Positions 24,664-50,933 of a DNA stretch of 64,000 bases are shown here, piece by piece; within the stretch, counting starts at the first letter, position 1; every line of letters begins with the position of its first letter. Where the stretch lies: positions 3,721 through 67,720 of the forward strand of contig CAYONZ010000015.1 of the NCBI GenBank assembly GCA_964405465.1. Direction: 5' to 3'. The position numbers and the translations under genes are program-made. The notes below the pieces were generated by a model. That model made no database searches and had not been told where the DNA came from. It worked only from the letters and a program-made list of their open reading frames with translations. The stretch is from an uncultured Bdellovibrionales bacterium (GTDB lineage: Bacteria > Bdellovibrionota > Bdellovibrionia > Bdellovibrionales > JAMPXM01).

Positions 24664-24688
24664 GAGGGGACGGAGCCCCTCTTTTTTT
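24664..24688 (+). terminator. rho-independent terminator built from a GGGGACGGAG copy
   Basis: GAGGGG-acggag-CCCCTC stem-loop followed by TTTTTTT. The motif copy at 24666-24675 supplies one arm and the loop. Confidence 0.75.
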
Positions 24689-27771: not shown

Positions 27772-30232
27772 TTTCTACTCCTACCAATTCAAAATCGACT
27801 TTGCCTGCCTCAGGGTCGGCAGCCACCACTCGCACCTTCAAAATGTCACCCAATGAAAATGATTGTCCAGTACGTTTGCCCACCAGTCGCAAGTTTTGCT
27901 GATCAAATTCAAAACGATCATTGCCAAGTCTTTCAATCTTGATCAGTCCATCAACATCATAGGCGCGAAGTTGAACAAAGATACCAAACTTCGTGACCGA
28001 ACTGACCATACCCTCAAACTCACTTCCTACAAATTGCTTGATGAACCTCGCTTTTTTTATTGAAATCAATTGCCTCTCGGCCTTTGCTGATCTCTGTTCA
28101 CAAGCGCTTAACATTACACCTGCGGTTTCCAGCTCTTCGATGCGAAGCTTGTCTCTGTTGTATTTTGGGTACAAAACACTTTTGGTCAACCGATGGACGA
28201 TTAAATCTGGGTATCGCCGAATCGGAGAAGTAAAATGTGCGTAGTGAGAAAATCCCAATCCAAAGTGACCTACGTTCTCTGGACTATATTTCGCCTGATT
28301 CATTGATCGAAGTGTTAAAATATTCAATATCGTAGCTTCTGGTTTTCCTGCAAACGACTCAAGTGCTCGAGTGATTTTCTTTTGCAACTTGCCACCCTCA
28401 AGACTTCTTGGCCCCCCAAAATTAAAGAGAAAGCGCTCGAGAGATTTGAGATTCTCATCCATTGGTGGTTCATGAACACGATAAAGAGCAGGGACCTGCT
28501 TTTCATCCAAAAATTCAGCCACAGAAATATTGGCTGCCAACATTAACTCCTCGATCAGACGATGCGCGAATAGCCGTTCTGTCTTGATGATATCAGTTGT
28601 GTTTCCTGATGGATCAACGACAACTTGGGTTTCTGGAATTTCAAGATCAAGTGAACCCTCTCGAAATCTTTTTGCCATCAGGATTTTTGCCAAACCTGCG
28701 GCAGCGCGAATATGCTCGGCCACATGTTTGATTTTTTCGGGTGGATTTCCATCAATCGCCTCTTGTGCCTCTCCATATGTCACTCGCGCCTTTGACTCCA
28801 TCACAGCTTCGTAAAACTTCTTGCTTTGAATTTCTCCCTCAAAGCTGATTTGCATTTCACAAACAAAGCAAAGGCGAACGACATGGGGTTTGAGCGAACA
28901 CAGTTCATTACTCAATTCCTCTGGTAACATCGGAACCACATAGTTTGGAAAATAAGTGCTCGTACCTCGCTCGAAAGCTTCTATGTCTAACGCTGTCTCT
29001 GCTATGACATAGTGACTGACATCTGCAATGGCTACCCAGAGTTTGAAGCCACTCGGAGTTTGCTCCACATAAATGGCATCGTCAAAATCACGCGCCGTTG
29101 CTCCGTCAATCGTTATCAAACTTTTTTCTCTGAGGTCCACTCGTCCGGCTATGTCTTCTGGCCTGACCTCCGTCCCCCATTTTCGGGCATCACGAAGAGC
29201 ATTTTGGGAAAACTCATGTGGGATATGATGGTGAAATATCATGCGTTTCACATCGTTAATCGGATCATCGGCGTCACCCAAAATCTGCACAACACGTCCG
29301 GTAAAATCGTCCGTCTCACTCGGATAGGTCAGCACATCCACTGCAACCATATCACCCTCTTTAGCTCCACCACTATCGGCAGCGGCAATGCGGAGGTCAG
29401 CTCCCCATCCCCGCCCCTCATCCAAAATCACACCGTATTTCAAGTCGACAGGAAGATACCGACCGACGATGCGCTGATGTGCTCGACTGATCACTCGCGT
29501 GATTTCTCCAGCTAATCTGTCCTGGGAATCTTTTTTATAAACACGGACCTCAACCTTGTCGTTTGTCATTACCGCAGACATATACTGGCGAGGAACATAA
29601 ACGTCCGGATAGGCCTTATCATCACAGAGTAAGAAACCAAAACCATCCGGATGGCGTTTAATCGTCCCGATCAACAAGTCTTTACGCCCCGCCTGTGGCT
29701 TTTCTGCACTCGGTTTCACCGGCATTTGATATTTTCCTGCGCTTCGCCGAGGGGACTCCGTCCCCTGCTTTGGGGACGGAGTCCCCCTTGGGGAAGTGGA
29801 GGCGGAAGAACTTTTTGATACTCCCCTTGAATTCTGATTCTCATGATTTTCACGGTATTTCCCACCGCTTTTTCGTTTTGATTTGCGACCGACTAAATCC
29901 TCTTCTTTTCGCGACACTTGGCGATCATCTTTTGTCGTACTCTTCTGCGATCGATTTTTTTTCGATGTTTTCTTATAAGTCTTTCCACTTCCCACTTCGG
30001 ACTTTGCTTTTTCTTCGGAGGTTCTCGTTAGCCCAAAGCTTGTCTGATTTTTTCTTGGCTCGGTCTTTCCGCTTCCACCAAAAAGACTAGAGAGACTTCG
30101 CGACGAAGACGCTTTGATCTGTAAACCACTCCGTCCCACTGACTTTTCAGCCCTTGAAACGATTTCAGATTTACTATTTGACCCGCCGGCCGATTCATTA
30201 CGAGACTTTTGTTTTTTTCTGTTATTTCTCAT
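27653..30232 (-). CDS. rnr: ribonuclease R with a roughly 200-aa Ser/Lys/Arg-rich N-terminal extension
   Basis: CSD (HPDGFGFL), RNB core and C-terminal S1 (GMVSSVTKFGIFVQL) followed by a basic tail. The ORF is open to 30322, so the start is uncertain. Confidence 0.9.
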   Translation of the reverse strand: MRNNRKKQKSRNESAGGSNSKSEIVSRAEKSVGRSGLQIKASSSRSLSSLFGGSGKTEPRKNQTSFGLTRTSEEKAKSEVGSGKTYKKTSKKNRSQKSTTKDDRQVSRKEEDLVGRKSKRKSGGKYRENHENQNSRGVSKSSSASTSPRGTPSPKQGTESPRRSAGKYQMPVKPSAEKPQAGRKDLLIGTIKRHPDGFGFLLCDDKAYPDVYVPRQYMSAVMTNDKVEVRVYKKDSQDRLAGEITRVISRAHQRIVGRYLPVDLKYGVILDEGRGWGADLRIAAADSGGAKEGDMVAVDVLTYPSETDDFTGRVVQILGDADDPINDVKRMIFHHHIPHEFSQNALRDARKWGTEVRPEDIAGRVDLREKSLITIDGATARDFDDAIYVEQTPSGFKLWVAIADVSHYVIAETALDIEAFERGTSTYFPNYVVPMLPEELSNELCSLKPHVVRLCFVCEMQISFEGEIQSKKFYEAVMESKARVTYGEAQEAIDGNPPEKIKHVAEHIRAAAGLAKILMAKRFREGSLDLEIPETQVVVDPSGNTTDIIKTERLFAHRLIEELMLAANISVAEFLDEKQVPALYRVHEPPMDENLKSLERFLFNFGGPRSLEGGKLQKKITRALESFAGKPEATILNILTLRSMNQAKYSPENVGHFGLGFSHYAHFTSPIRRYPDLIVHRLTKSVLYPKYNRDKLRIEELETAGVMLSACEQRSAKAERQLISIKKARFIKQFVGSEFEGMVSSVTKFGIFVQLRAYDVDGLIKIERLGNDRFEFDQQNLRLVGKRTGQSFSLGDILKVRVVAADPEAGKVDFELVGVEIESSKGSDENRKYVQKRGKTENNRGRVRKERVSKRRRKN
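29168..29177 (-). repeat. GGGGACGGAG motif copy (exact)
   Basis: CTCCGTCCCC on the + strand. Inside rnr; the sense strand reads W-G-T-E-V. Confidence 0.9.
29751..29786. repeat. perfect 15-bp inverted repeat made of two motif copies (GGGGACTCCGTCCCC-tgcttt-GGGGACGGAGTCCCC)
   Basis: Read directly. Motif copies at 29756-29765 and 29772-29781. It lies inside the rnr N-terminal extension (codons R-G-T-P-S-P-K-Q-G-T-E-S-P). Confidence 0.95.
30129..30138 (-). repeat. GGGGACGGAG motif, 9/10 copy
   Basis: CTCCGTCCCa on the + strand. In the rnr N-terminal extension (V-G-R-S-G). Confidence 0.6.
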
Positions 30233-30352
30233 TACCCAAAACGCTAACACACGCCCCATACCGAAGGAATCTTTAGTCAGCCCCACCAAGCACATCGCGT
30301 TACATACACTTTGATTTTCCAACCGACCTCATCTACCATCAGAGGTCGTTGG

Positions 30353-30439
30353 GCCCGGATGGCGGAACTGGTAGACGCGCTAGATTCAGGTTCTAGTCCT
30401 CGCAAGGGGGTGGAGGTTCAAGTCCTCTTTCGGGCACCA
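30353..30439 (+). tRNA. tRNA-Leu (anticodon CAG), encoded CCA
   Basis: Hand-folded cloverleaf. Acceptor GCCCGGA/TTCGGGC, anticodon stem CTAGA/TCTAG with loop TTCAGGT, long variable arm, T-arm GGAGG-TTCAAGT-CCTCT, and 3' ACCA. Confidence 0.9.
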
Positions 30440-30853
30440 TCTTTTAACAATCATCAATCACTCTGTCTGATCACGGTTTTTGATATTTATCCCAATTACT
30501 AACATTCGATTTCAAAATTCACCCACTGTGTTCGATACAGATTGCGATCTGGCCATTTAAAAAATTAATTAAAATAAAAAAATCAAATGCGAAAGTTTTA
30601 ATCCCATAATATTTCAGCTTGAGACTCCGGCTAAATATTTCGACCCACTCTCTATCTGACAAGAAGACAATCGGAACTTAAAAATGGCCCACCCCGGACA
30701 GAGGAGGAATAGTGATTTTAGTTTGATAGAAATATGTCACAATTTACTTTTCAGTTCGAATTCGTCTGTGAAATTGCGGTTCAGGTCTTCATTTTGAAAA
30801 TCGAAATTTCTACAGTTCACGACTCCATCAGAATGTCTTACGCCAACCACGAA

Positions 30854-32245
30854 CTAGCCGAAAACAACACCCGTGACCTCGGTGTTCAGCTTAAAGAGAG
30901 AATCTCCAAGTCGTGCTACCAATATCTTTTTTGCTTCGTCCAGTGGTAGCCAATAGTAGTGAAAATTGAGACTCTTATCTGCATCGGTCCCAGTAACTTT
31001 ATGTGTCCACCTGTCCTTAATTTGAAAGTCTCCAACCAAGTGGTACACATGCCGTTTTGTGTACCTTTGGGACCATTCAGCAAAAAAGAGATACTCATCT
31101 ATTTTGTTTATTGAAAATGGACCACATAGACCTGATTCTTCAAAGACCTCCCTTAACAGCTCCTGCTCAGTGTCTGTTCCACATTCAATGATCCCCGCTG
31201 GAACCTGAGTTCCCGCATCTGCAAAATGCTTGTCATGGTCAAACACCAAAAGTTCAGGTCTATTCTGGCCCTTTCGAGTTCGAGTAATGTATGCAACAAC
31301 TTTTGTCGAAATTTTTTGTTTGGAGGAATCGTGGACTTTCATGACCTGATCCCTCGCCTCCCCCAGAGCATCAGCAAGAGTCACCCAGTATCGCCGAACA
31401 TATTCATTTTTGATTTTATCAAAAAATCTATTTTCCAGATGAGCAGAATACCCCTCAACGATTCTCCACGACGGTGTATTCTGATCTCCGCATGTGATCA
31501 GAACTTTTTCTAAGCCAAGCTTTTGGCAAATTCCCAATCCCTGGCGATAGATTTCGAATCCATATCCACGCCCTCGGTACTTTGGGTTCACGGCATATCC
31601 GATGTGCCCGCCTCGCTCCATGAGCGCCGTGTTTAATTCGTGACGAATGTTGATTCTCCCCACAATTTTTTCTCTTACAAAAGCATAAAGCATTGTCGAC
31701 GCCACTTGACCCGAGCCAACTGAAATGGGGTTTTTCTGAAGATCGAGAAGCTGGAGGTGCTCTCCAAAAGACATCCCAGAGGACCACAGAAATGTGAACC
31801 AAGAAACTCCCTCTTTTTTCCACTCCTCTAGCCCCTCAAAAAATGCAACCTCGTCGTCAGCGTTAAGTTCACGTAGAATCAATTCCTCCATAAACATTTC
31901 CTCATTTTCATTTAAATTTTTTCCAGAATTCAACGATCGAACATGTTCGCACACCGAGAAAGAACGGGGGTAATCCAAAATTTTTTTCGATAATAGTATT
32001 TCGCAGTCCTCTTGTTCCGGACAACCGATAGTCTCTTCCAAAGCGAGATAGCGCAACCAGTTAGGGAATCTTTGAGCTCTTACCTTTAAACCAGGGGTCC
32101 GGAAGGAGTGCAAAAGGTAGATCATGAACCGCGTCCAATACCCCTGGAGGCACTCACTTTGGGGGGACGGAGTACTACTTTCTGAATTTGTTTTCTTATT
32201 TGAAAAAGCCAACAACAAAGTGCCAATTATATGGCCGGATCGCAA
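30854..32245 (-). CDS. GNAT N-acetyltransferase / NUDIX hydrolase fusion protein
   Basis: GNAT core (YRGRGYGFEIYRQG) followed by a Nudix box GIIECGTDTEQELLREVFEESGL. The N-terminal ~130 aa are unrecognised and the start is uncertain. Confidence 0.65.
   Translation of the reverse strand: MRSGHIIGTLLLAFSNKKTNSESSTPSPQSECLQGYWTRFMIYLLHSFRTPGLKVRAQRFPNWLRYLALEETIGCPEQEDCEILLSKKILDYPRSFSVCEHVRSLNSGKNLNENEEMFMEELILRELNADDEVAFFEGLEEWKKEGVSWFTFLWSSGMSFGEHLQLLDLQKNPISVGSGQVASTMLYAFVREKIVGRINIRHELNTALMERGGHIGYAVNPKYRGRGYGFEIYRQGLGICQKLGLEKVLITCGDQNTPSWRIVEGYSAHLENRFFDKIKNEYVRRYWVTLADALGEARDQVMKVHDSSKQKISTKVVAYITRTRKGQNRPELLVFDHDKHFADAGTQVPAGIIECGTDTEQELLREVFEESGLCGPFSINKIDEYLFFAEWSQRYTKRHVYHLVGDFQIKDRWTHKVTGTDADKSLNFHYYWLPLDEAKKILVARLGDSLFKLNTEVTGVVFG
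32163..32172 (+). repeat. GGGGACGGAG motif copy (exact)
   Basis: In the N-terminal region of the GNAT-Nudix ORF. The sense strand carries the C-rich complement (T-P-S-P). Confidence 0.9.
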
Positions 32246-32288
32246 AAGAATCTGTATTTATTGAGCCTTTACCAATACGCTTGTACTC

Positions 32289-32666
32289 GTGATTACTAAA
32301 ACTAAAAATTTCGTCTTTCTAATTATTGGTTGGATCTTCGTGGCTCTGGGGATCATTGGACTCTTTCTTCCCGTAATGCCTACGACTCCCTTTCTAATTG
32401 CTGCTGCCTATTTTTTTTCACGAGGTTCTCCTAAATACCACCAATGGCTGTTGGAACGCCCAATTCTAGGCAAACAATTGAGCGATTGGGAGAGAGACGG
32501 AATTATTTCCAGACGCACTAAGGTCCTCGCGGTGTCCATGATTGCTGTTTCGTTCTCAAGTATTTTCGTACTGGTAGATGCTCCATCATGGGCAAAAACG
32601 GCAATGCTGTTTGTCGGCTTAGTTGTCTCTATCTTTATACTGTCTCGCCCTTCGAGTAAGCCTTGA
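32289..32666 (+). CDS. ybaN: DUF454 inner-membrane protein (YbaN family)
   Basis: LGIIGLFLPVMPTTPFLIAAAYFFSRGSPKYHQWLL is the YbaN signature. GTG start. Confidence 0.75.
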   Translation: MITKTKNFVFLIIGWIFVALGIIGLFLPVMPTTPFLIAAAYFFSRGSPKYHQWLLERPILGKQLSDWERDGIISRRTKVLAVSMIAVSFSSIFVLVDAPSWAKTAMLFVGLVVSIFILSRPSSKP

Positions 32667-32711
32667 AAAGGTTTGAAACCTAATATCCATTGCTACTATT
32701 TTCCTATGGTA

Positions 32712-33596
32712 TTAGGAGGCTCCGTCCCCTTTTATCGCCTCTTCCTGGGGAAGTTTGCGGCCAACAGCCATTAAGGTGCGACCCGATCCCAGGAGAACTG
32801 GATCACTCGAATAATCAAAGAGAAAGTCAGCCCACTTCTTTTTCAATCTCTCAGGTAAACGGTTAAAAATTTCGTCAAAAGCACCGATACATGGATCAGT
32901 TACATGTAGTGCTTCGAGTTCGAGATCCGCCACGTTGTGCAACGACCGGACATCCTCAAAGGAACTAAAATATCCACGAAACATTCCATTCCTGGGATGA
33001 TCCTTTACAAAACCAGATTGCATCATTTCTTTTGCCTGCTCCGGTACACGCTCAAGCCATTCCGGAAATAGTGCCAATTGATACGACATCAATCCCATCC
33101 TAGTTAAAAAAGAACTAAAGATTTTCCCATTTGGAGAGAGCAGCATTTCGATGTCTTTCATCAATTTGTGCCTATCATCACTTTTTACCAGGTGATACAA
33201 TGGGCCCATAACTAAAATTGCATCAAATTTTTCAGGAACCAACGATCTTACCTCCCTGGCGTCCCCCACTACAAAGCTGACTTGCGAACCAAACTCTGAA
33301 ACCCTTCTTCGATTTTCGTCAATTAATTCCTCTGTCAAATCTAGCGCGGTCACCTTGTGTCCGGCCTCAAGCAAATATTGAGTATATCGTCCGGAACCTG
33401 CTCCCAACTCGAGTACATTTTGAGGAGATTTTAAATAAGAATCCAAAACCTTTTTTGTGATCGCAAATTCCAACTGCTGAGTCTGTAACCTCCCACTCTC
33501 TCCGTTTTTTCTGTAATACTGAGCAATATCCGCCAGATCTTCGAACTCCGTCCCCTCATTTTTGACGCTCTTTTTGTCACTGCCTTCATTTTTCAT
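32712..33596 (-). CDS. class I SAM-dependent methyltransferase
   Basis: VLELGAGSGRYT..KVTALDL motifs. Confidence 0.75.
   Translation of the reverse strand: MKNEGSDKKSVKNEGTEFEDLADIAQYYRKNGESGRLQTQQLEFAITKKVLDSYLKSPQNVLELGAGSGRYTQYLLEAGHKVTALDLTEELIDENRRRVSEFGSQVSFVVGDAREVRSLVPEKFDAILVMGPLYHLVKSDDRHKLMKDIEMLLSPNGKIFSSFLTRMGLMSYQLALFPEWLERVPEQAKEMMQSGFVKDHPRNGMFRGYFSSFEDVRSLHNVADLELEALHVTDPCIGAFDEIFNRLPERLKKKWADFLFDYSSDPVLLGSGRTLMAVGRKLPQEEAIKGDGAS
32720..32729 (-). repeat. GGGGACGGAG motif copy (exact)
   Basis: Covers the last codons of the methyltransferase (K-G-D-G-A-S-stop). Confidence 0.9.
33546..33555 (-). repeat. GGGGACGGAG motif copy (exact)
   Basis: At the methyltransferase N-terminus (N-E-G-T-E-F). 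Confidence 0.9.
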
Positions 33597-35179: not shown

Positions 35180-35208
35180 CTCATTCATAACGAAACCGTG
35201 TGAATGAG
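35180..35208 (+). repeat. 8-bp hairpin (CTCATTCA-N13-TGAATGAG) just upstream of the RAYT gene
   Basis: Read directly. A motif copy at 35220 follows 11 nt later. Confidence 0.5.
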
Positions 35209-36049
35209 TAATTGGGGCCGGGGACGGAGACTTGAGCAGAAAATAAATACGGTCGCAATTCGGATGATTCAGACGACCAACTTGTCTTTAATCAGATTTC
35301 AACGTTGTCCCCGAATTGCACGATTCGACCACATGAGAATATCGAGGACACAACAACTTCACCCTTTTTCCGCTAGCACACATATGTACTGGAAATGCCA
35401 CAATCACGAATACTATCTCCAAAAGAACTCAATAAAAGATCTTTACATAAAATGCATAAATGAATCACTAAATCGAAAAAGCTCATATCACTCTAAAATC
35501 ACCATTTCCTCCTTCTGCGTAATGAGTAACCATTTTCACCAAATCGCTTCATATAGAAATTCATCTATTCACCTTTCCAATCACATGCGATACAGCCAGG
35601 GGTTATTTGGCGCTCGTTACAATCGCATGAATAGTCGAGCTGGAAAGGTTTCGATCGGACGACCAAAGACTCCGCTTATTCAAAATAGCACCCATGAGAT
35701 GAAAGTTCATTTATACATCGAAGCAAATCCAATTAGAGCAGGCATATGTAAAATACAGGATCTTAAATATTTCAAACATTGCTCATTTAGATTCTATGCC
35801 TTTGGAATTGAAGATCAAATCACAAAAATTCTGACGATACCTCAATGGTACCTAGACTTAGGAAGAACTTCTTTGGAAAGACAGAAAAAATATAGGGAAC
35901 TTTTTTTGGCAGCTCTCAAGTCTTACGCATTTTCCCCGGCAAAATACCTAAGGTTTCAATTGCCGTTTATTGGTTCACAAAAATGGATAAAATCTCAGCA
36001 TTGCCGTCTAGCAAAAATAAAAAAGTTAAATTCGCTCAACGACTCCTAG
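35204..36049 (+). CDS. REP-associated tyrosine transposase (RAYT) / IS200-like Y1 HUH transposase
   Basis: HUH motif in VMSNHFHQIA and the catalytic-Tyr helix HLYIEANPIRAGICK. The spacing and the LFGARYNRMNSRAGKV segment fit the Y1_Tnp (COG1943) family. There is no tnpB partner. The start is uncertain (35204, 35264 or 35333). Confidence 0.75.
   Translation: MSNWGRGRRLEQKINTVAIRMIQTTNLSLIRFQRCPRIARFDHMRISRTQQLHPFSASTHMYWKCHNHEYYLQKNSIKDLYIKCINESLNRKSSYHSKITISSFCVMSNHFHQIASYRNSSIHLSNHMRYSQGLFGARYNRMNSRAGKVSIGRPKTPLIQNSTHEMKVHLYIEANPIRAGICKIQDLKYFKHCSFRFYAFGIEDQITKILTIPQWYLDLGRTSLERQKKYRELFLAALKSYAFSPAKYLRFQLPFIGSQKWIKSQHCRLAKIKKLNSLNDS
35220..35229 (+). repeat. GGGGACGGAG motif copy (exact) at the 5' edge of the RAYT ORF
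   Basis: Context GGGGCCGGGGACGGAGAC. It lies upstream of the internal Met codons at 35264 and 35333 that may be the real start. Confidence 0.9.
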
Positions 36050-36052: not shown

Positions 36053-36700
36053 CTATTTACCTTTATCGATAATTCGCCCCTCATACATATAAAACACATC
36101 TCCGCCAAATACTTCGACATCTCCTGGGTCATGTGTAATCAGCATTGTTGGAATTTTATTTCTCTCAATCAGTGATTTTATCAATGATCTGGCCTCTGCT
36201 TTATTTTCAGCATCCAACGCTGAAAATGGCTCGTCCAACAGCAATATCCTTGGCTGTCTAGCAATCGCTCTTGCTATTGCGACTCGCTGTTTTTCACCTC
36301 CAGACAATTCTCCACCCTTTCGATCGGCACATCCACTCAAACGCAATTGATCTATTAAACTCTGAACACGGAGGCTCCGTCCCTTTTTGTCGCCTCCGAC
36401 TAAAGTCAGGGGAAATTCTATATTTTCTCTGACTGTCATATGTGGAAATATTTCTAAACTCTGAAAAACTACACCAATATTTCTTTCCAAATGACTAATT
36501 TTTAAAAGGTCCGTCCCCTTCCATTCCCAAGTCCATTCTTGCTGTGGTATTTCCAAACCAATTAGAGAACGAAAAAGAGTTGTCTTGCCGGATCCCGAAG
36601 GTCCCAGCAAACAAGTAGCTCCAATATCTGACAAAAACAATTCGGGTACATTCAAACAGAAACTACCCAACCTAACCTTAAGGTTTCTTATAACCGACAT
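36053..36700 (-). CDS. thiQ: thiamine-type ABC transporter ATP-binding protein
   Basis: Walker A GPSGSGKTT, signature LSGGEKQRV and Walker B LLLDEPFSALD. Last gene of the thiB-thiP-thiQ arrangement. Confidence 0.7.
   Translation of the reverse strand: MSVIRNLKVRLGSFCLNVPELFLSDIGATCLLGPSGSGKTTLFRSLIGLEIPQQEWTWEWKGTDLLKISHLERNIGVVFQSLEIFPHMTVRENIEFPLTLVGGDKKGRSLRVQSLIDQLRLSGCADRKGGELSGGEKQRVAIARAIARQPRILLLDEPFSALDAENKAEARSLIKSLIERNKIPTMLITHDPGDVEVFGGDVFYMYEGRIIDKGK
36375..36384 (-). repeat. GGGGACGGAG motif, 9/10 copy
   Basis: CTCCGTCCCt on the + strand. In thiQ (K-G-R-S-L). Confidence 0.6.
36509..36518 (-). repeat. GGGGACGGAG motif, 9/10 copy
   Basis: gTCCGTCCCC on the + strand. In thiQ (K-G-T-D-L). 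Confidence 0.6.
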
Positions 36701-38141
36701 TTCCCATCCCTTTGAACAAAAAGAACGTGACTAACCCCCCACATACTAGAACCCATACCTCAGCAGTTGCCACCGACAGTCGATAGCTTTCCATCAAACC
36801 TGCCACTTGAAGCGATAATGTTAGTGGCTTCGCAAGTACCATCTTTGACAAGGAAATATCCCCCCAGGCCCAAAAACTTGCAAATGCAGCTATCCCACAG
36901 CAACGACTCCAGGCTTGCGGCAATACAATTCTTGTAAGAATTGTTAGGGGCCCTCCCCCCATCGTGCGCACTAACTGAACCTGTGAATTTATTTGGCCTA
37001 AAAAAGAATCCAAATAAAATCGATAGAGAAACGGAAAAAAAAGTACGCTTAGACCTATAATTAGACTGAATTTGCCAGTTAGATTGAAGCTGATCATTGC
37101 AAAGCCAACTACAACCATACTAGGTGCCAAGTGCCCTAAAAGAACTTTTCGAACTGCTCCGGTTGGGAATACGTAAAGTATCAATATGCAAAGCCCCAAG
37201 GAGGCTAGTCCAACTCCCATTCCTATAAAAATCGATCCAATGAGTCCATCGAGGATTCCGTCGAGTATGGCTGGGTTGCTCAAAATTAATTGAACTCCGT
37301 CCCCAAAACCAACGCTTAGGCCAACGAATAGACAACTCACTGGCAGAAGTACCGGAACCAAACCAAGTGGACTTGAAAGAAGACTCAGACCCATGCCTTT
37401 GGGACGTCCCTCTATCTGAAAATGAACACGTCTTTGCGTAAGCATCAAAGAAAGTCCAAGAACCAATACGCTCTGTATGAAAGAATACGACGCAGCCAGC
37501 CCCCAATTTTGGTCCACCCGAAGTTTTTCATAAATCAATACTTCAAGCGTTGTCGCCCCCCTTCCCCCGAGAATCAAAGGGATTGAGAAGCTAGTCAAAC
37601 ATATCGCAAATATCGACAATCCAATTATCCTCACGTCCTTCTCAATGTTGCCATACACAACCCTTCGAAAAAACGTCCACTTCCCTGCTCCCATCACCTC
37701 AGCCACTGCGGAATACCTAGCAACTACCGAAACTAGCAAATCCTCCAGGGCAACAGCCACTATTCCGACGTTTATCAGAGAATGGACAACCACTATGGAT
37801 GCCAGCGGAGCAATATTTCTTGGTGCCAAATTCAAATAGGCCAAAATCAATAGAAGCGATGGAAAAACATTAGGAACTATCGACAGAAATCGAGCTGCTG
37901 ATACCAAACCAGACGAGTAATGTCGACTCAGATAAATCAACCCATAAGCACCCAATAAACCGAAAGTCATCGTAACGAATGCGCTTAAAAACGATTGGGC
38001 CAACGTAAAACCCAACGCTCTCCAAAAATCCTGGCCAACTAAAAAACTGCTTACATCGAAGTGAAGGCCTAAAACTAAATAAGGAAAAATCAGAAATGTG
38101 AGGAGTATCAGCAGAATAAATACTCGAAAGGGATCCCTCAT
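36678..38141 (-). CDS. thiP: thiamine-type ABC transporter permease (duplicated domain)
   Basis: 487-aa two-module permease between the ThiB-like binding protein and the ATPase. Confidence 0.7.
   Translation of the reverse strand: MRDPFRVFILLILLTFLIFPYLVLGLHFDVSSFLVGQDFWRALGFTLAQSFLSAFVTMTFGLLGAYGLIYLSRHYSSGLVSAARFLSIVPNVFPSLLLILAYLNLAPRNIAPLASIVVVHSLINVGIVAVALEDLLVSVVARYSAVAEVMGAGKWTFFRRVVYGNIEKDVRIIGLSIFAICLTSFSIPLILGGRGATTLEVLIYEKLRVDQNWGLAASYSFIQSVLVLGLSLMLTQRRVHFQIEGRPKGMGLSLLSSPLGLVPVLLPVSCLFVGLSVGFGDGVQLILSNPAILDGILDGLIGSIFIGMGVGLASLGLCILILYVFPTGAVRKVLLGHLAPSMVVVGFAMISFNLTGKFSLIIGLSVLFFPFLYRFYLDSFLGQINSQVQLVRTMGGGPLTILTRIVLPQAWSRCCGIAAFASFWAWGDISLSKMVLAKPLTLSLQVAGLMESYRLSVATAEVWVLVCGGLVTFFLFKGMGNVGYKKP
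37295..37304 (-). repeat. GGGGACGGAG motif copy (exact)
   Basis: In thiP (F-G-D-G-V-Q). Confidence 0.9.
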
Positions 38142-38168
38142 CGTTTTAACTCTAGTTGGAATTTTTGC

Positions 38169-39182
38169 TCAAAACCCATCAATCCGTTTCCATATCTCCA
38201 ACATCTCATGTTTTCGATCGCCCAACCTAAGGTTAATTGAACCTTCAATTAATTTGAGCTCTGGAATTTTGTCGAACTCCGTCCCCTTTTTAACAGAATC
38301 TACAACAGGCAGCATATAGTTCTTCTTCATGATTATAGACTGAGACTCTGGTTCTAGTAGGAAACTCAAAAACAACAGTGCAGCTTCTTTCTGTAAACTG
38401 CCCGCAGGAACCCCCGCAAACTCAACCTGAATTGGATGGCCCTCTTTGAATACTGAAGCCCGATACTCGGACTTCCCTTCCTCAATCAAATGATACAACG
38501 GTGAGGTTAAATACGACATCACCAATTTTGCATGCCCAGATTGAAATAAGCCGTAGGCCTGGGACCAAGAACTCGAAATGCTTTGAATATTTGGAGCCAA
38601 TTGGGTTAAAAAACCACGAGCTCCGTCCCCCTTTTCACCCATTGGAAAGCCTTTTTGAGCAAAAACCCAGAAGAGAAACTGTTGTCCCGGTGAACTAATC
38701 CTGGGGTCCTGCAAAGCAATCTGACCCCTAAATCGAGAACTCAATAAATCATCCATCGACTCCGGTGGAACAATTTCTTTATCCCGATAAATAAAAGCCA
38801 TCGGAGCCCAATCAAATGCGTAAAACTCATCACGGGCAAATCGTGCAGTTGTTCCCTGAAGCCTCTCCCACTTAAACTGTTTCGCGGCTTCTTCCACCGA
38901 AAACTGATCCAAACCCACCACCACATCAGCTTTCCGAATCTTTAGCCTTTCCAAGAGCAGTGCTCCGTCCCCACCATCCTGAAAACTAACGGCGATTTGG
39001 TATTTCTCCTCAAATCGCTTTGCCAACTCCGGACCCGGCCCCCATGAATTCATAAATGACCCATAGGTCAGGACCTCGATCGATTTCCCCACAGAGCTCC
39101 GTCCCCGTGCCATGTTCCAATAGATCGCAATGCCCACCAAAATCGACACCATTGTAACCAACAGAATTACAACCCTCTTCAT
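38169..39182 (-). CDS. thiB: thiamine ABC transporter substrate-binding protein
   Basis: VLTYGSFMNSWGPGP, QDPRISSPG, SWSQAYGLF and SYLTSPLYHLIEE match ThiB/TbpA as I recall it. Confidence 0.8.
   Translation of the reverse strand: MKRVVILLVTMVSILVGIAIYWNMARGRSSVGKSIEVLTYGSFMNSWGPGPELAKRFEEKYQIAVSFQDGGDGALLLERLKIRKADVVVGLDQFSVEEAAKQFKWERLQGTTARFARDEFYAFDWAPMAFIYRDKEIVPPESMDDLLSSRFRGQIALQDPRISSPGQQFLFWVFAQKGFPMGEKGDGARGFLTQLAPNIQSISSSWSQAYGLFQSGHAKLVMSYLTSPLYHLIEEGKSEYRASVFKEGHPIQVEFAGVPAGSLQKEAALLFLSFLLEPESQSIIMKKNYMLPVVDSVKKGTEFDKIPELKLIEGSINLRLGDRKHEMLEIWKRIDGF
38277..38286 (-). repeat. GGGGACGGAG motif copy (exact)
   Basis: In thiB (K-G-T-E-F). Confidence 0.9.
38621..38630 (-). repeat. GGGGACGGAG motif copy (exact)
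   Basis: In thiB (K-G-D-G-A). Part of the 13-mer GAGCTCCGTCCCC. Confidence 0.9.
38963..38972 (-). repeat. GGGGACGGAG motif copy (exact)
   Basis: In thiB (G-G-D-G-A-L). Confidence 0.9.
39097..39106 (-). repeat. GGGGACGGAG motif copy (exact)
   Basis: In thiB (R-G-R-S-S). Part of the 13-mer GAGCTCCGTCCCC. Confidence 0.9.
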
Positions 39183-40606: not shown

Positions 40607-41695
40607 ATGGAAGGACCACGTCCACCACAGGATCACGAAATTAATGGTGTATTTTCGTTTCTCAATACGCACCTCCGTCCCCAAGAAAAATGGTCGATCA
40701 CGGCAGAATATCCGATCGCTTTTGCTTCGGGAAACTATGGCAACATGAGGATAATTAAAGAAAACAACGAGGTTCTCTCACACGCTGTAATGCGCCCCTT
40801 GATCGTAAAGTCCACCTGCGGCCTCTTTAAAGTTGGAGCGATCGGAAGTGTCGTCACCTCAACAGACCATCGCAACCAAGGTCTCAGTCGCCAAATTCTT
40901 GAGAGCTGTGTTTCCGCTGCGCGAGATCACGGTTGTGATATCGCAATCCTTTGGACCAACCTCTACGATTTCTATCGAAAGCTCGGTTTTGAACTCGCGG
41001 GTTCAGAGGTAAGTCTTGTAATTGATCGAGAGCTCAAGCTCGAAACCAATTACAAAATCGTTGAGGGAACCAAAGTTGATCCCGAAGCAATTCACAAGCT
41101 TTTTCTAAGTCACACAGTCTGTTCACTTCGAAATCTCGATGAAACTCGGCGCTACATGCAAATTCCCAATACACGGATGTACACGGCATGGGATGCTAAT
41201 GGATCCATCAAAGCTTTTGCCGTAGAGGGAAAGGGCGCTGATCTCGACGGTTACATTCATGAGTGGGCAGGATCAGTGAGCGCCCTCATGTCCCTGTTTG
41301 ACCATATTCGAAAAGCTCAGAAACGAAATATTACGGTCATTTCCCCTAGGCACTCGATCAATTTAATTCAGCAGCTAAAAGCACAGGGGATTCGCTCACA
41401 CGAGGGATTTTTGGGAATGGTAAAGATTCTCAACCACAATAATCTCTTCAGCAAACTGAAGAGATATGCCCGAGCTATGGGTGTCGGCGAGCTGGTCCTC
41501 GAAAAACAAGGCGACTACTATTACTTTGGGTCCGAAGACAATATTTTCAAAACAGACTCAGATGTGGATCTCATTCGGTTGATTTTCGGTCCCCAACGCC
41601 CTTCAGAGATTCACAAATTCGATCCTTCAACAACAAAGATGTTTGAGCAGATTTTTCCGATCGATATGTGGATTTGGGGTTGGGACTCAATATGA
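40607..41695 (+). CDS. GNAT acetyltransferase with an Eis-like C-terminal domain (tentative)
   Basis: GNAT core (HRNQGLSRQILESCV..YRKLGFE) plus a roughly 200-aa C-terminal extension. Confidence 0.55.
   Translation: MEGPRPPQDHEINGVFSFLNTHLRPQEKWSITAEYPIAFASGNYGNMRIIKENNEVLSHAVMRPLIVKSTCGLFKVGAIGSVVTSTDHRNQGLSRQILESCVSAARDHGCDIAILWTNLYDFYRKLGFELAGSEVSLVIDRELKLETNYKIVEGTKVDPEAIHKLFLSHTVCSLRNLDETRRYMQIPNTRMYTAWDANGSIKAFAVEGKGADLDGYIHEWAGSVSALMSLFDHIRKAQKRNITVISPRHSINLIQQLKAQGIRSHEGFLGMVKILNHNNLFSKLKRYARAMGVGELVLEKQGDYYYFGSEDNIFKTDSDVDLIRLIFGPQRPSEIHKFDPSTTKMFEQIFPIDMWIWGWDSI
40673..40682 (-). repeat. GGGGACGGAG motif copy (exact)
   Basis: CTCCGTCCCC on the sense strand of the GNAT gene (H-L-R-P-Q). 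Confidence 0.9.
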
Positions 41696-42609
41696 AGAGT
41701 GAATCCTCCGCAAACTTCCGACCTGGTAAAACCATCTCTAGGCAAACCAATCTGACTCGAGCTCCGTCCCCTGCAAAAATGGTCGGAGAGATGGTCGAAT
41801 GGGTCGGACTGCGGATAACTCTATTGTCAGCACTTCTGCTCTGTGCGTGCGTAAAACACGAACAACCCAAACAAGACTTTGGACCAGAATCTGACCCGCA
41901 GGAAATCCTCAACACAATCAAAAAAGTTAGATCTTCAAGCAATCCATTTTCGATGAAAGTCGGCGAATTTGTCCACCTTGAGGAGAACCAGACCGTGGCC
42001 AACACTGTTCACTCCATCACTGCCGACACCGGAATTACTGTGACCAATCGTGAAGAAAACGATGTCGCCGTCCGATATTCGTTCACCCAACGGCGATTCA
42101 CATACTATGAGCAAAAGCCCCGAGAGGTCGCTACAGAACTTCCTCCCCTTGTCCTAAAAAAGCCGCAGAAGTCTTCCTCCAGTATCGCAGACATGATTTT
42201 CTCTTTTGGTATTTCAGTAACTCCGTCCCCGAACCCCTTGGCTCCGTCCCCTTTGTCGGGACCCCAGACCCACCTCACTATGAGCGCGTCCGAGCCCTCT
42301 CAAGTAACCTTTCACAATTTTAAATTTTCTGAACAAACCGAACCAGCCCCTGACCTGGTCGCCCAACGCCCAGACTGCCTCAATATCGAAGGTTGTAAGT
42401 ACAAGGTCTCGCGCATTTCATTCGATGAAGTCGCTTGGATCAACAACCAACCCGAACTCACACAATACTCCTATGCATTCAGCGACCGCGTTCCCTACAT
42501 CGCCAGTCAACTCGAAAACTGTGCCACTCGCATGGTCGAACTCTCCAGTGGCAGCAAAGCTCCCGTTAAGTTCTGTAGTGTTGTTCGAGACTTCAAGTCA
42601 GGCAACTGA
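41692..42609 (+). CDS. putative lipoprotein
   Basis: ATGA start/stop overlap with the upstream gene. Lipobox-like LLSALLLCAC. No family recognised. Confidence 0.5.
   Translation: MKSESSANFRPGKTISRQTNLTRAPSPAKMVGEMVEWVGLRITLLSALLLCACVKHEQPKQDFGPESDPQEILNTIKKVRSSSNPFSMKVGEFVHLEENQTVANTVHSITADTGITVTNREENDVAVRYSFTQRRFTYYEQKPREVATELPPLVLKKPQKSSSSIADMIFSFGISVTPSPNPLAPSPLSGPQTHLTMSASEPSQVTFHNFKFSEQTEPAPDLVAQRPDCLNIEGCKYKVSRISFDEVAWINNQPELTQYSYAFSDRVPYIASQLENCATRMVELSSGSKAPVKFCSVVRDFKSGN
41762..41771 (-). repeat. GGGGACGGAG motif copy (exact)
   Basis: C-rich strand in the sense of the lipoprotein gene (A-P-S-P). Part of the 13-mer GAGCTCCGTCCCC. Confidence 0.9.
42221..42230 (-). repeat. GGGGACGGAG motif copy (exact)
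   Basis: In the lipoprotein gene (T-P-S-P). Direct repeat with the copy 21 bp downstream. Confidence 0.9.
42242..42251 (-). repeat. GGGGACGGAG motif copy (exact)
   Basis: In the lipoprotein gene (A-P-S-P). Confidence 0.9.
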
Positions 42610-46171: not shown

Positions 46172-46195
46172 CTCCAAATTTGGAGCTCCGTCCCC
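46172..46195. repeat. 14-bp palindrome CTCCAAATTTGGAG abutting an exact motif copy (CTCCGTCCCC at 46186-46195)
   Basis: Read directly. Intergenic. Confidence 0.9.
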
Positions 46196-46444
46196 CTTGG
46201 GTAAATTGGATCATGGGCGCAACTTACTAGAATGGTTGAATTAATTTGGAGCAACCAAAGAATTTGTGCGGCACCAGTACTAGTTCTTCAGTCAAGAAAT
46301 GTAGGTTCCATTTTCAATCAAAGACCAACGAGCCCTGGAGACATTTTGAATTCGCAACAGAATATGATCGATAGATTTTTCAACAAATGATAAATTGCCA
46401 CTAGACAATGAGCTTCGAGAATAAAATTAATTCGGAGAAAATAC

Positions 46445-48427
46445 ATGAAATACGTAAAAGTGGCGGCAGGTGTGGTCAACCAGACCCCACTCGACTGGAC
46501 TGGAAACAAGAATCGGATCCTGCAAACCATTGCGCATGCCCAAAAGAGTTCAGCATCGATTCTCTGCCTGCCTGAACTCTGTATTACCGGTTACGGGTGC
46601 GAGGACGCTTTTTTTTCTCCCTTCGTACATGACAAAGCTCTCCAGATATTAAAACAAATTCTGCCCCACACAGTGGGACTCGTGGTCACCCTAGGCTTAC
46701 CCATTTTTCACCAAGGTGCCATTTTCAACACCACGGCCGTCATCGCAAATGGGCAAATTCTCGGGTTCATTCCCAAGAAACAGCTCGCTGGGGACGGAGT
46801 CCACTACGAGAACCGATGGTTTAAGACCTGGCCAAACGATGTCTATGATTCACTCAAGCTCGATGGTTTAGATTACCCATTTGGAGATTTCTTTTTTGAG
46901 ATCGGCGACATCCGAATTGGCCTCGAAATCTGCGAAGAAGCTTGGGTCGCCAAACGCACAGGGGCGCAGCTCGCGCAGAAGGCAACAGACATCATTCTGA
47001 ATCCCAGTGCAAGTCACTTCGCCTTTGGAAAACACGAAGTTCGCAAACGATTTGTCCTCGAGGGCTCGCGAGCTTTTGGCGTGGCATACGTGTACACGAA
47101 TTTGGTAGGCAACGAATCGGGACGAATTATATTTGATGGTGGAGCGCTTATTGCCTCAAATGGTCAGATCGTGCTGCAATCTCCGCGTTTTTCTTTTGCC
47201 GACTCGGCCATTTATACTGCCGTAATTGATGTTGAGATGAATCGAACCAAACGCGCACAGACCGCAAGTTTCACACCTCTGATGGGGACGGACCCCTCGC
47301 TGATTCGAGTACCGTTTTCTTGGCTCGAGTGTAAACCCGAAATTTCTCATGCCGAGGTCCACGCTTGGGAACAAAGTGCTGATATTAAAAATGAAGAATT
47401 CTATCGTGCCGAGGTGCTAGCCCTATTCGACTATTTGAGAAAAAGCCGTTCTTCCGGATTTGCGGTTTCACTCTCTGGCGGAGTGGATTCTGCGGTTTGC
47501 GCTACCCTCGCCGCTAAGTGTTTCGAGTGCGCGGCCAAAGAAATTGGCCTAGATCAATTGAAAACTCGCCTCGCATACATCCCCAAGATCGACCGACACC
47601 TTTCCCTTCAATCCCTGACAAAACAAATGGTCCTGACTCTCTACCAAAGCACCCAAAACAGCTCCAATGACACCCGAAATGCAGCAACAAAAGTTGCTTT
47701 CGAGCTGGGGACGGAGCACCACCAGTGGAACATTGATGGCCTTCTCAAGGAGTATCACTCTCGGGTAGAAACCATTATTGGACGTCCTCTTTCCTGGGCC
47801 ACCGATGACATCGCCTTACAAAATGTCCAAGCTCGAGTGCGATCCCCAGGTGTCTGGATGCTCGCCAATCTCAGGGGTGCACTCTTGTTGGCAACCAGCA
47901 ATCGCAGTGAAGCCGCGGTCGGATACGCAACAATGGACGGCGACACCTCCGGGGGACTGAGCCCGATTGCGGGTGTCGATAAAGCATTTCTGCAAACATG
48001 GATTCGATGGATGGCAGAACACGGGCCAGCGGATGGAAACAAAGTGGCCTCCCTAGCTGAGGTCTATAAAGTGCCGCCCTCAGCCGAGCTCCGTCCCCCA
48101 GAAAAGCATCAAACCGATGAGGCAGATTTGATGCCTTACTCTGTTCTTGATGCTATTGAGCGGGCGTTTATTCGGGATCGCAAAGCACCACTCGAAATTT
48201 TGTCACTATTAAAAATACATTTCCCACAGTTTCCACCAGAGATGCTTCGCAATTGGACGTCTCGCTTTCTTCGACTCTGGGCACAGAATCAGTGGAAGCG
48301 TGAGCGATATGCTCCAGCATTTCACCTTGATGACGAGAGCCTAGACCCCAAAACCTGGTGCAGATTCCCGATATTATCCAATGGATTCATTGATGAAATA
48401 GAGGACATTAAAAATTGGAACCCTTAG
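46445..48427 (+). CDS. nadE: glutamine-dependent NAD+ synthetase
   Basis: N-terminal CN-hydrolase domain (LEICEEAW) and C-terminal NAD synthetase domain with P-loop SLSGGVDSAV. Confidence 0.9.
   Translation: MKYVKVAAGVVNQTPLDWTGNKNRILQTIAHAQKSSASILCLPELCITGYGCEDAFFSPFVHDKALQILKQILPHTVGLVVTLGLPIFHQGAIFNTTAVIANGQILGFIPKKQLAGDGVHYENRWFKTWPNDVYDSLKLDGLDYPFGDFFFEIGDIRIGLEICEEAWVAKRTGAQLAQKATDIILNPSASHFAFGKHEVRKRFVLEGSRAFGVAYVYTNLVGNESGRIIFDGGALIASNGQIVLQSPRFSFADSAIYTAVIDVEMNRTKRAQTASFTPLMGTDPSLIRVPFSWLECKPEISHAEVHAWEQSADIKNEEFYRAEVLALFDYLRKSRSSGFAVSLSGGVDSAVCATLAAKCFECAAKEIGLDQLKTRLAYIPKIDRHLSLQSLTKQMVLTLYQSTQNSSNDTRNAATKVAFELGTEHHQWNIDGLLKEYHSRVETIIGRPLSWATDDIALQNVQARVRSPGVWMLANLRGALLLATSNRSEAAVGYATMDGDTSGGLSPIAGVDKAFLQTWIRWMAEHGPADGNKVASLAEVYKVPPSAELRPPEKHQTDEADLMPYSVLDAIERAFIRDRKAPLEILSLLKIHFPQFPPEMLRNWTSRFLRLWAQNQWKRERYAPAFHLDDESLDPKTWCRFPILSNGFIDEIEDIKNWNP
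46790..46799 (+). repeat. GGGGACGGAG motif copy (exact)
   Basis: In nadE (A-G-D-G-V-H). Confidence 0.9.
47284..47293 (+). repeat. GGGGACGGAG motif, 9/10 copy
   Basis: GGGGACGGAc. In nadE (M-G-T-D-P). Confidence 0.6.
47707..47716 (+). repeat. GGGGACGGAG motif copy (exact)
   Basis: In nadE (L-G-T-E-H). Confidence 0.9.
48089..48098 (-). repeat. GGGGACGGAG motif copy (exact)
   Basis: CTCCGTCCCC in the sense of nadE (E-L-R-P-P). Part of the 13-mer GAGCTCCGTCCCC. Confidence 0.9.
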
Positions 48428-48665
48428 AGTTATACCTGTAGGCGTACAAGGCAATTGTCGCTGTCTCTAGATCACTGGAACACAATGGATCTATACCTCA
48501 ACCTACTGATTGAGTGTCCCGATTTCCACTGCCCAAAGTTTTCACGTTTTTGAGCAGTGTATAAGCCATCGACACTCAGGAAGAAATTCTAGAGCTACAA
48601 AAATTTAGCCATCCACTTTCGAGATGATCATTTTTCTGGCTCCGATTACAGGGTAAGATGCGGCG

Positions 48666-49847: not shown

Positions 49848-49903
49848 CGGCAACGCCCAAATACTCCAAATTTGTTTGGGCCAACTCGGCTCGATACGAC
49901 CGA

Positions 49904-49940
49904 GGCTCCGTCCCCCGGTCTTTGATTAGGGGACGGAGCC
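49904..49940. repeat. perfect 12-bp inverted repeat GGCTCCGTCCCC-N13-GGGGACGGAGCC (motif doublet)
   Basis: Read directly. Intergenic, between the hypothetical gene and menB. No T-run follows it. Confidence 0.95.
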
Positions 49941-50132
49941 CAGTGATTGCGGGCACAAGAGATCTAAGCCGTGGACCGGGCGCGCGAGGCGTTAGATGGA
50001 ACTGTCCGGGATTCCGGCTACATTTTTTTTTGTAATTCTGCTAAACCCTCAGGCACACTAAGTCGCACCATTTTTCTAATCACCTGCAGGAGGATTCGCG
50101 TGGGCACATCAAAATCAGAAGTTTGGATAAAA

Positions 50133-50933
50133 ATGAAAGACTACACCGACATCAAGCTTGAAAAAACAGCCGATGGCGTGGCCAAGGTAACCATAAATCG
50201 ACCCGAAGTTCGCAATGCATTTCGCCCACTCACGGTGCAGGAACTTCAAGATGCATTTAATATTTGCCGAGATGACGGCTCAGTTGGCGTTGTGATTCTC
50301 ACCGGAGCTGGTGATTTAGCTTTTTGTTCAGGTGGAGACCAACGAGTTCGTGGCACTGGCGGCTATGTCGGTGGGGACGGAGTCCCTCGGTTAAACGTAC
50401 TTGATCTTCAAAAACAAATTCGCAGCATCCCAAAACCCGTGATTGCCATGGTTGCCGGATACGCAGTTGGCGGAGGACACGTACTCCACGTCGTCTGTGA
50501 TCTTTCAATTGCCGCCGACAACGCTCGCTTCGGACAAACCGGACCAAAAGTTGGATCATTCGATGGCGGTCTCGGCAGCAGTTATCTCGCCAGAATTGTG
50601 GGCCAAAAGAAAGCTCGTGAAATTTGGTACCTCTGCCGTCAATACGACGCCCAACAGGCTCTCGACATGGGACTCGTCAATGCCGTTGTTCCTCTGGCAG
50701 AGCTTGAAACCGAAACTCTCAAATGGTGCCGCGAAATTCTCGAACACTCACCGCTTGCGCTTCGCTGCTTAAAGGCCTCACTCAACGCAGATTGCGATGG
50801 GCAAATGGGTCTTCTCGATTTGGCCGGTAACGCCACACTTTTGTATTATCTCTCAGAAGAAGCAAAAGAAGGAAAACAGGCCTATTTGGAAAAGCGTCAG
50901 CCTGATTTTTCTAAGTTTCCACGATTACCATAA
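50133..50933 (+). CDS. menB: 1,4-dihydroxy-2-naphthoyl-CoA synthase
   Basis: Near-full-length similarity to MenB ([41 protein letters not shown]). The track ORF from 49971 is an unsupported N-terminal extension. Confidence 0.92.
50373..50382 (+). repeat. GGGGACGGAG motif copy (exact)
   Basis: In a variable loop of menB (V-G-G-D-G-V-P). Confidence 0.9.

Follow-up and report, generated by a model that had tools for sequence, protein, structure and literature searches.

The stretch of DNA analyzed here (the window) comprises 64,000 nucleotides (nt) of contig CAYONZ010000015.1 from an uncultured Bdellovibrionales bacterium. It carries a gene for a Y1 tyrosine transposase of the HUH superfamily, and a 10-nt word, GGGGACGGAG, recurs around this gene in a field of copies, most of which lie inside other genes. 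The core of the word is followed by C, T or G, and nothing is conserved further out. A preliminary description of the window had placed the transposase gene at the densest part of the field and had asked whether the association is a coincidence. It appears not to be. A link between gene and field is strongly supported by comparison of sequences, because the clustering of the word is replicated at relatives of the gene in other genomes, because the word co-varies with the protein clade, and because a syntenic control region without the gene is free of copies.

The transposase gene and its terminal words

The gene and its immediate surroundings show the following features.

35180–35208 (+): 8-bp hairpin beside the left word, at this locus only (−10.5 kcal/mol, z = −2.5)
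35204–35332 (+): 5' extension of the longest open reading frame (ORF), containing the left word and preceding the start of the homologue alignment
35220–35229 (+): left terminal word GGGGACGGAG, 112 nt 5' of the start codon, with GGGGCC before it
35333–36049 (+): gene for a Y1 HUH tyrosine transposase of 238 amino acids (aa), placed in the TIRYT class by its motifs; HUH motif N66-H67-F68-H69, catalytic Tyr128 in YIEANP
36375–36384 (−): right terminal word aGGGACGGAG, inverted, 326 nt past the stop codon, in thiQ (encoding K-G-R-S)
36509–36518 (−): one-mismatch variant GGGGACGGAC, in thiQ

The longest ORF, 35204–36049 (+), encodes 281 aa and contains both the HUH motif SNHFHQI and the catalytic-tyrosine helix HLYIEANPIRAG that had been pointed out earlier. 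The gene most likely starts at the ATG at 35333, because all 33 aligned homologues begin MR[IL]xR there. The 89 homologues found in a database search are mostly ~240 aa long, come from Bdellovibrionota metagenome bins, and cover ~80% of the 281-aa ORF. The segment 35204–35332 is probably leader or promoter DNA rather than coding sequence. The corrected start bears on the earlier statement that a copy of the word marks the 5' edge of the gene: GGGGCCGGGGACGGAGAC does occupy 35214–35231, with its core from 35220, but the word does not lie at the edge of the coding sequence. On the other side the gene ends at 36049, leaving the expected 3-nt gap to the stop codon of thiQ (36053).

What kind of protein does the gene encode? 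A Pfam search returned no match, Y1_Tnp included, and NCBIfam returned REP_Tyr_transpos as a weak match below threshold (33 bits against a cut-off of 80). The check by hidden Markov models (HMMs) that had been proposed was therefore negative in one library and weakly positive in the other, and the assignment to a group (Group 1) among the REP-associated tyrosine transposases (RAYTs) comes from motifs. A profile of the family, run against PDB sequences, matched only E. coli TnpA_REP (4ER8), and weakly (E = 0.42). An AlphaFold model of the protein is confident (pLDDT 93.9, pTM 0.90), and a Foldseek search with this model placed 4ER8 first (E = 1e-5, TM-score 0.74 normalized to the target), with ISDra2 and IS608 TnpA structures as runners-up (2XMA and 2A6M among the matches). 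Because of the confident model and its top structural match, the predicted protein is considered a Y1 HUH enzyme nearest the RAYTs, in agreement with the original identification as a RAYT/IS200-like enzyme. It displays the HUH fold, the His-hydrophobic-His motif, and a catalytic tyrosine on a C-terminal helix, with H67/H69 and Y128 conserved. In an alignment of 34 sequences H69, Y128, N132, and P133 are invariant, and H67 is kept in >90%. Helices at residues 152–235 of the model extend past the Y1 core. The family is of modest size, with 111 clusters at 50% identity reaching E ≤ 1e-30.

The gene had been called a lone one. This holds for the window, where its neighbors are an MFS transporter gene and thiQ, no tnpB partner is present, and tblastn found no second copy or remnant. 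One ORF of the same length as the 281-aa ORF, at 1129–1974, was considered as a second copy and rejected, because it encodes a flagellin. Plasmids, searched by tblastn, gave only matches of 25% identity. The gene probably has company in its own genome, since a 52%-identical paralogue with the same word (P0001 vs P0003) lies on another contig from the same sequencing run. Likewise, one assembly, GCA_964612425.1, has two paralogues of 78% identity (P0020 and P0022) on separate contigs and amid different genes.

For comparison, loci around homologues were taken from other assemblies (L002, L121, L123, L125, L126, L209, L211, L212, and L214). A word on the gene strand upstream and an inverted word downstream occur in the window, in seven further loci and, in degenerate form, in L214, that is, in 9 of 10 loci. 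In the seven, the upstream word lies 47–205 nt from the start and the downstream inverted word 255–825 nt past the gene; in L214 the degenerate upstream word is about 320 nt away. The upstream terminal words are often two to three direct repeats. L002 is an exception in that its downstream inverted copy is present and its upstream copy lies on the opposite strand, and in L121 there is no downstream copy within the sequence examined. The earlier view that the gene lacks inverted-repeat ends and any repeat on its 3' side is thus contradicted by the inverted words at 36375–36384 and 36509. The 8-bp hairpin reported at the 5' side does exist, but it was not found in seven homologous loci. The idea of a conserved hairpin was rejected for this reason, and the hairpin appears from the compared sequences to be outside the conserved anatomy of the element.

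A class with such ends has been described. In the TIRYT genes ('TIRtrons') of Di Nocera et al. 2013 (PMC3733652), both flanks carry terminal inverted repeats with GGGGWSAS in common, and part of these repeats belong to 'moderately abundant' families that occur as dimers or clusters. The TnpA_Y1 subclass 2.1 of Quentin et al. 2018 (PMC6006769), which those authors equate with the TIRYTs, has a median length of 238 aa, the HuH motif NHVH or NH[YF]H, the Y motif YIELNP, and a C-terminal extension. Subclass 2.1 occurs at 1.9 copies per genome with 49% identity, is prevalent in epsilon-, beta-, and delta-proteobacteria, and has no REPs (PMC6006769). The same group is RAYT Group 1 of Bertels et al. 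2017 (PMC5581495), for which 16-mers gave a weak repeat association.

By its motifs, rather than by those authors' HMMs, the gene matches a member of this class (TIRYT, TnpA_Y1 subclass 2.1, RAYT Group 1). It encodes 238 aa with NHFH, YIEANP, and a C-terminal extension; terminal repeats bracket 9 of 10 loci, without conserved hairpins; and the two paralogue pairs (78% and 52% identity) fit about two diverged copies per genome. The fit on length, motifs, bracket, and paralogy indicates that the gene and its ends are a new member of an already described class. Shared with the TIRYTs are also the absence of REP hairpins, the distances of the inverted-repeat flanks from the coding sequence, and the prevalence in delta-proteobacteria-like lineages. 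Of the terminal sequences, GGGGACGG agrees with GGGGWSAS at 7 of 8 positions (departing at position 7), and GGGGACAG, the dialect of L212 and of two more distant loci (L148 and L159), is the exact published consensus (8 of 8). The W[EQ] (or FQ) motif is missing. The family reads GKV[AS]xGRPKT against the canonical GxLWEGR, and the replaced tryptophan marks a divergent branch. Pfam Y1_Tnp does not recognize the protein. In the present family the shared repeat is, moreover, cut to a 10-nt core, and its copies are mostly single, non-palindromic, to 72% in genes, and within a few kb of the gene, an arrangement undescribed for TIRYTs.

The preliminary description had instead taken the gene for a domesticated REP-associated RAYT, which does not agree with this assignment. 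The likeness to REP/REPIN-RAYT systems (TnpA_REP 4ER8; Pseudomonas REPINs) is real in the closest solved fold, the bracketing of the gene by inverted repeat copies, the co-variation of repeat and protein, and a low-copy gene unlike an insertion sequence. However, REPs are imperfect palindromes of 20–40 nt with a GTAG or CGTC head that occur extragenically, in hundreds, and genome-wide. The present unit is a 10-nt non-palindromic word that arose by substitution, is found near the gene, and lies mostly inside coding sequences; lacking conservation beyond its 10-nt core, it does not fit the REPtrons (subclasses 2.2 and 2.5). With IS200/IS605 elements (IS608 and ISDra2 TnpA) the family shares the HUH/Tyr single-stranded DNA transposase fold, presumably the chemistry, and the importance of end orientation. 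It differs from them in its Tyr motif (Y...NP in YIEANP against Y...Q), in a protein about 90 aa longer, and in the lack of subterminal hairpins, of tnpB, and of identical multi-copy elements, the window holding no second copy.

The word field in the window and around relatives

The window contains 29 copies of the 9-mer GGGACGGAG, where 0.29 would be expected. All but two of these copies (27 of 29) lie within 24667–50382 (binomial p about 6e-9), and the other two are at 808 and 870. In other words, there are 27 copies in 26 kb inside the field and 2 in 38 kb outside it. Perfect 10-mers number 27 and one-mismatch copies 6, where chance predicts 2.3 of the latter. The copies are distributed as follows.

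808–878: inverted doublet at a remote position (34 kb from the gene), 5' of a flagellin gene
24667–24675 (+): outermost upstream copy, intergenic, in a terminator-like context
29168–33554: upstream part of the field, with four copies in the RNase R gene, one intergenic at 32164, and two in a methyltransferase gene
36375–39105 (−): six exact copies in thiQ, thiP, and thiB, all sense, in three frames
40673–42250 (−): four copies antisense to + strand genes (a GNAT gene and orf313)
46186–50382: distal cluster of eight exact and two one-mismatch copies in nadE, orf393, menB, and intergenic DNA

The seven copies that had been counted in thiQPB comprise six exact ones and one variant. Only three inverted doublets exist among the 29 copies: the remote one, one at 29756–29781 among the four copies of the RNase R gene, and an intergenic one at 49906/49930 in the distal cluster. 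A direct doublet within 40673–42250, its members 21 nt apart, sits in an insertion relative to the orthologue (orf313). A third one-mismatch variant lies near the distal cluster, at 45912. The earlier impression that the field thins out on both sides of the gene is correct insofar as copies cluster near the gene, but the fall-off is uneven, with a second cluster at 46.2–50.4 kb and the remote doublet at 808/870. A decayed family gene under the distal cluster (46–50 kb) was considered; tblastn found nothing there.

Some neighboring features deserve mention. An N-terminal extension of RNase R (29700–30295, −), of ~200 aa and rich in Lys, Ser, and Arg, holds the inverted doublet of that gene, translated PRGTPSPKQGTESPR. 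A tRNA-Leu(CAG) gene lies inside the field at 30353–30439 (+), and a tRNA-like sequence, read by eye, directly follows the family gene of L212 on its 3' side (about 7510–7600). Word copies stand 190–380 nt 5' of flagellin genes in two genomes (808–878 in the window and L214:16963–17158), and the family gene of L214 sits between flagellin genes. No further sequence similarity was seen between the flagellin upstream regions of the window and L214.

Is the field a property of the gene or of the genome? One alternative is that the word has a genome-wide function, as DNA-uptake, Chi-like, or KOPS-like words do, that the word-free regions of the window are recently acquired DNA, and that the association with the gene is coincidental. 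Uptake words such as DUS (Neisseria) and USS (Pasteurellaceae) occur at about 1 per kb, in tolerant intragenic positions and in inverted pairs at terminators. The present word resembles them: it is 10 nt long, occurs at a similar density, is tolerated in genes through codon choice and variable segments, forms inverted terminator-like pairs (24667 and 49906/49930), and is common to genomes of very different GC content. However, the uptake words are spread genome-wide and tied to competence machinery, whereas the present word is confined to the vicinity of a Y1 transposase gene. It has no copies in 900–24600 and 50400–64000 of the window, although GC content is uniform along the window (0.41–0.49) and core genes of an ordinary kind (among them flagellin and menA) lie in the empty stretches. 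Nor does the word occur in the distal flanks of nine other family loci, so that even density is found in neither place. Together with the co-variation of word and protein and the copy-free syntenic region described below, these findings make a genome-wide function highly improbable.

The limits of the field, at 24.7 and 50.4 kb, are fairly sharp, as would be expected if the gene and about 25 kb of flanks had been recombined in from a donor lineage with a high genome-wide frequency of the word. This origin is still less probable. There is no compositional step at the borders, the neighbors of the gene are syntenic with a region of another genome (L216), and a gene-centered peak would require ten such imports with field sizes of 0.5 to 25 kb, the range seen over the ten loci.

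Further evidence comes from the relatives of the gene. Nine family loci besides the window carry GGGGACGGAG or the dialect GGGGACAGAC around the gene. The neighbors differ at all nine comparison loci (gatCAB-ligA, exbBD, an alternative complex III operon, pheST, flagellin genes), and the GC content of family loci spans 34–58%. GGGGACGGAG ranks first or joint first among the 10-mers of six loci from other genomes (GC 34–48%); these include L002, L121, L123, L126 (behind a local tandem repeat), and L211, but not L209. All five copies of L121 lie between −2330 and −174; the 13 copies of L123 lie between −1914 and +3431, with none in its other 14 kb; and those of L209 and L211 are likewise gathered at the gene. 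With the window and the nine other loci pooled, density falls from 2.4/kb at <0.5 kb from the gene to 0.7–0.9/kb at 1–3 kb and 0.05/kb at 7.5–10 kb. Without the window it is 0.96/kb at ≤3 kb against 0.125/kb at >5 kb (p = 2e-11). Over the first few kb, the window and the comparison loci give good support for a local field.

The word also changes with the protein. A divergent clade (P0083, 38% identity; L212/L213) builds the same architecture from a different word, GGGGACAGAC(TCC). Two loci at 28% identity (L148 and L159) use the GGGGACAGAC dialect, with GGGGACAGACC in palindromes or doublets clustered at the gene. These two carry canonical TIRYT genes (NHVH, YIELNP), and their GGGGACAGACC repeats (L148:9539–9790 and 14662–14840; L159:1538–7500) are palindromic or REPIN-like doublets within a few kb of the gene, with a second cluster 4.3 kb off in L148.

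Regions without the gene provide the controls. L216, a 21-kb region from a different genome, agrees with the window in GC content and in the gene order PilZ-ECH-Ddl-DJ1-GNAT-DoxD-thiBPQ, but the transposase gene is absent; it contains no copy of the word. L215, which has thiBPQ without the gene, contains none either. A profile search of metagenome contigs with the family alignment returned only distant COG1943 relatives (≤35% identity), which were taken as a negative control: 80 loci of other COG1943 families hold 8 word copies in 493 kb. L148 and L159, the two canonical TIRYT loci described above, were among these relatives.

These comparisons bear on a further alternative, in which the word is an insertion target, as TTAC is for IS608, and the gene lands in patches already rich in the word. 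The target sequence of IS200/IS605 elements is indeed their left cleavage site (PMC6006769), and word clusters without the family gene inside 8 kb exist (L047 and L076). However, the origin of such patches would be otherwise unexplained, the syntenic region without the gene has no copies, in 9 of 10 loci the density maxima coincide with the two ends of the gene, where the words are in opposed orientation, and the dialect shifts with the protein clade. A mere target site is thus quite improbable.

Other repeats were encountered along the way. All 18 copies of GGGGACGGAG in 8 kb of a Pseudohongiella metagenome-assembled genome (L047:360–7760, JAUYSM010000055.1) lie in REP-like hairpins such as GGGGACGGAGGGATCAAAATTTGATCCCTCCGTCCCC; this repeat may be a dispersed palindromic form of the word repeat in a gammaproteobacterium. 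Inverted word doublets in genome contigs were, among the matches listed, mostly in unrelated genomes and chiefly at one conserved Collinsella site. Two word variants share one field in L123 (8087–13905), GGGGACGGAG in eight copies and GGGGACGCAG in five. In L126 a second word, TAAACCTGGG, is repeated 10 times in tandem (11080–11300) beside three downstream word copies, and the length of this array differs in the near-identical L127. In L173 (340–3650), a different repeat with CGCAATGAC, probably a classical REP family, has about 26 copies near a distantly related Y1 gene.

Origin of the copies

In the window, 21 of the 29 copies (72%) are intragenic, 15 of them sense and 6 antisense, and all three frames are used. 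Because about 95% of the field is coding DNA, intergenic DNA is nevertheless enriched. How did the word enter genes? NadE (three copies), MenB, and ThiQ, aligned with solved homologues, show no gap at the word. The NadE peptides at the words are LAGDGVHYE (against LANEGVHYE), ELGTEHHQW, and AELRPPEK (against AELRPSEY). In ThiB, two copies fall without gaps in conserved peptides (GTEF and DGGDGALLL), one falls at a 6-aa insertion, and one in the variable N-terminus. The insertion, PMGEKG (38600–38650, −), is absent from 15 orthologues and lies immediately 5' of its word copy. For the identical peptide DGGDGALLL, the window uses ...ggtgGGGACGGAGca... and L216 uses ...ggtggtgacggcgcg... (gGGGACGGAG against ggtgacggcg). 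In the GNAT gene, ctccgtggt (LRG) of L216 corresponds to CTCCGTCCC (LRP) in the window, a change of Gly to Pro. Of the sites able to encode the word synonymously, 23 of 28 carry it inside the field and 0 of 15 outside. The field also has more such sites than the density outside predicts, meaning that proteins changed in sequence to accommodate the word.

The alignments thus indicate that substitution produced most of the field, and that short in-frame insertions and intergenic tandem arrays (L126, L121, L209) account for a minority. An origin mostly by substitution excludes REPIN-like copy-and-paste as the main route. The preliminary description had reasoned that the mode of spread would have to differ from REP/REPIN transposition. 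This is supported: the copies stand singly inside genes, are not palindromic, and in most cases arose by substitution.

Near-identical strain pairs (at least 99.7% identity) hint at continuing change. Most positions at which they differ are no more than about 40 nt from a word close to the family gene: 6 of 7 between L212 and L213, and 41 of 42, mostly insertions or deletions in tandem arrays, between L126 and L127. These differences may reflect ongoing activity at the words or assembly noise in repeats. In the first pair (99.9% identical contigs) the six differences form one block directly 5' of an intragenic word (L212:8842–8860, L213:2997–3018), consisting of a 3-nt insertion or deletion and three substitutions. 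Each version can fold a small hairpin, and the stems differ.

Substitution at perfectly kept sites also suits the main rival explanation, to which the target-site, genome-wide, and import explanations are secondary. Here the protein would be a domesticated binding protein that no longer moves DNA, and the copies would be selected sites, an iteron- or parS-like array for regulating or organizing the DNA around the gene. All ten positions of the word are perfectly conserved, direct word repeats resembling operators or iterons stand 5' of the start in L121, L209, L126, and L211, and RAYT groups generally behave like vertically inherited single-copy genes (PMC5581495). However, the neighbors differ at every locus and have no common function, and a diffusible protein needs no sites beside its own gene. 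Furthermore, housekeeping proteins took amino-acid changes and insertions for the word, a high cost for a regulatory array, and the conserved HUH and invariant Tyr residues argue for retained catalysis. A purely binding protein is accordingly thought unlikely.

Proposed action of the protein

The account favored here, and regarded as moderately probable, is that the locus is a 'TIRtron' whose protein recognizes the word, acts near its own gene, and generates the field. The element would consist of a Y1 HUH transposase gene of the TIRYT class with inverted copies of the 10-nt word that its protein recognizes, GGGGACGGAG, on both sides; the two proximal inverted words would delimit it. The protein would recognize the word and presumably nick and rejoin single-stranded DNA there, with a 5'-phosphotyrosine link through Tyr128 and a metal ion held by the HUH histidines. 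Binding and cleavage of the word are suggested by analogy with TnpA_REP and IS608. To our knowledge, neither binding nor cleavage of flanking repeats has been shown for any TIRYT. The extra copies, within about 3 kb in most loci and about 15 kb here, would result from the same protein acting preferentially near its own gene rather than from a mobile REPIN-like unit. Most would be written into existing DNA, coding DNA included, with length unchanged, a minority would arise through short in-frame insertions or tandem arrays, and copies would be kept as perfect 10-mers. The copies would then be products of molecular drive by a protein that presumably acts in cis, and not selected binding sites. 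A cis-acting bias is well known for bacterial transposases. Such a preference would explain the decay of copy density with distance; a selected function of a diffusible protein would not.

Several observations weigh against this account. In the window, one cluster lies 10–14 kb from the gene and one doublet as far off as 34 kb, and dense fields far from any family gene may exist elsewhere in the source genome. Among 8-kb stretches chosen by word doublets, L047 holds 18 copies and L076 three with the family gene absent. The genome of L216 may lack the whole family, in which case that region tests dependence on the gene and not locality. The terminal words of L214 are degenerate only. The orientation of copies points to the gene from both sides (23 plus and 15 minus upstream, 14 plus and 43 minus downstream; Fisher p = 6e-4), but this bias is confounded with the direction of neighboring genes. 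Finally, we know of no HUH reaction that swaps about 10 nt in place with length unchanged. HUH strand exchange excises or inserts DNA, which leaves an in-place 10-nt replacement unexplained.

A bolder version holds that the Y1 HUH enzyme overwrites the DNA around it: near-cognate sites, codons of essential genes included, would be converted in place to perfect GGGGACGGAG, yielding a self-renewing 'painted' field. This is put forward only tentatively, as a doubtful possibility. If true, a painted field would represent repeat propagation by neither transposition nor binding-site selection.

While the gene and its ends fall into a described class, the local intragenic word field around the gene is new. 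The literature searched contained no mention of a gene-centered intragenic field of the core word, and searches on the word itself returned nothing relevant. TIRYT/Group 1 is the largest RAYT group, for which published accounts give no demonstrated DNA target, activity, or function, and surveys based on 16-mers or REP hairpins had reported it as not repeat-associated. The present family provides a precise 10-nt candidate target together with a natural specificity pair (GGGGACGGAG against GGGGACAGAC). It displays a repeat population beside the gene and inside coding DNA, where the sequences of housekeeping proteins appear to have shifted to accommodate the word. Should the copies be the work of the enzyme, a selfish or domesticated nuclease would here be shaping neighboring genes in a new manner, and the field would be a natural case of short-range, sequence-specific DNA rewriting.

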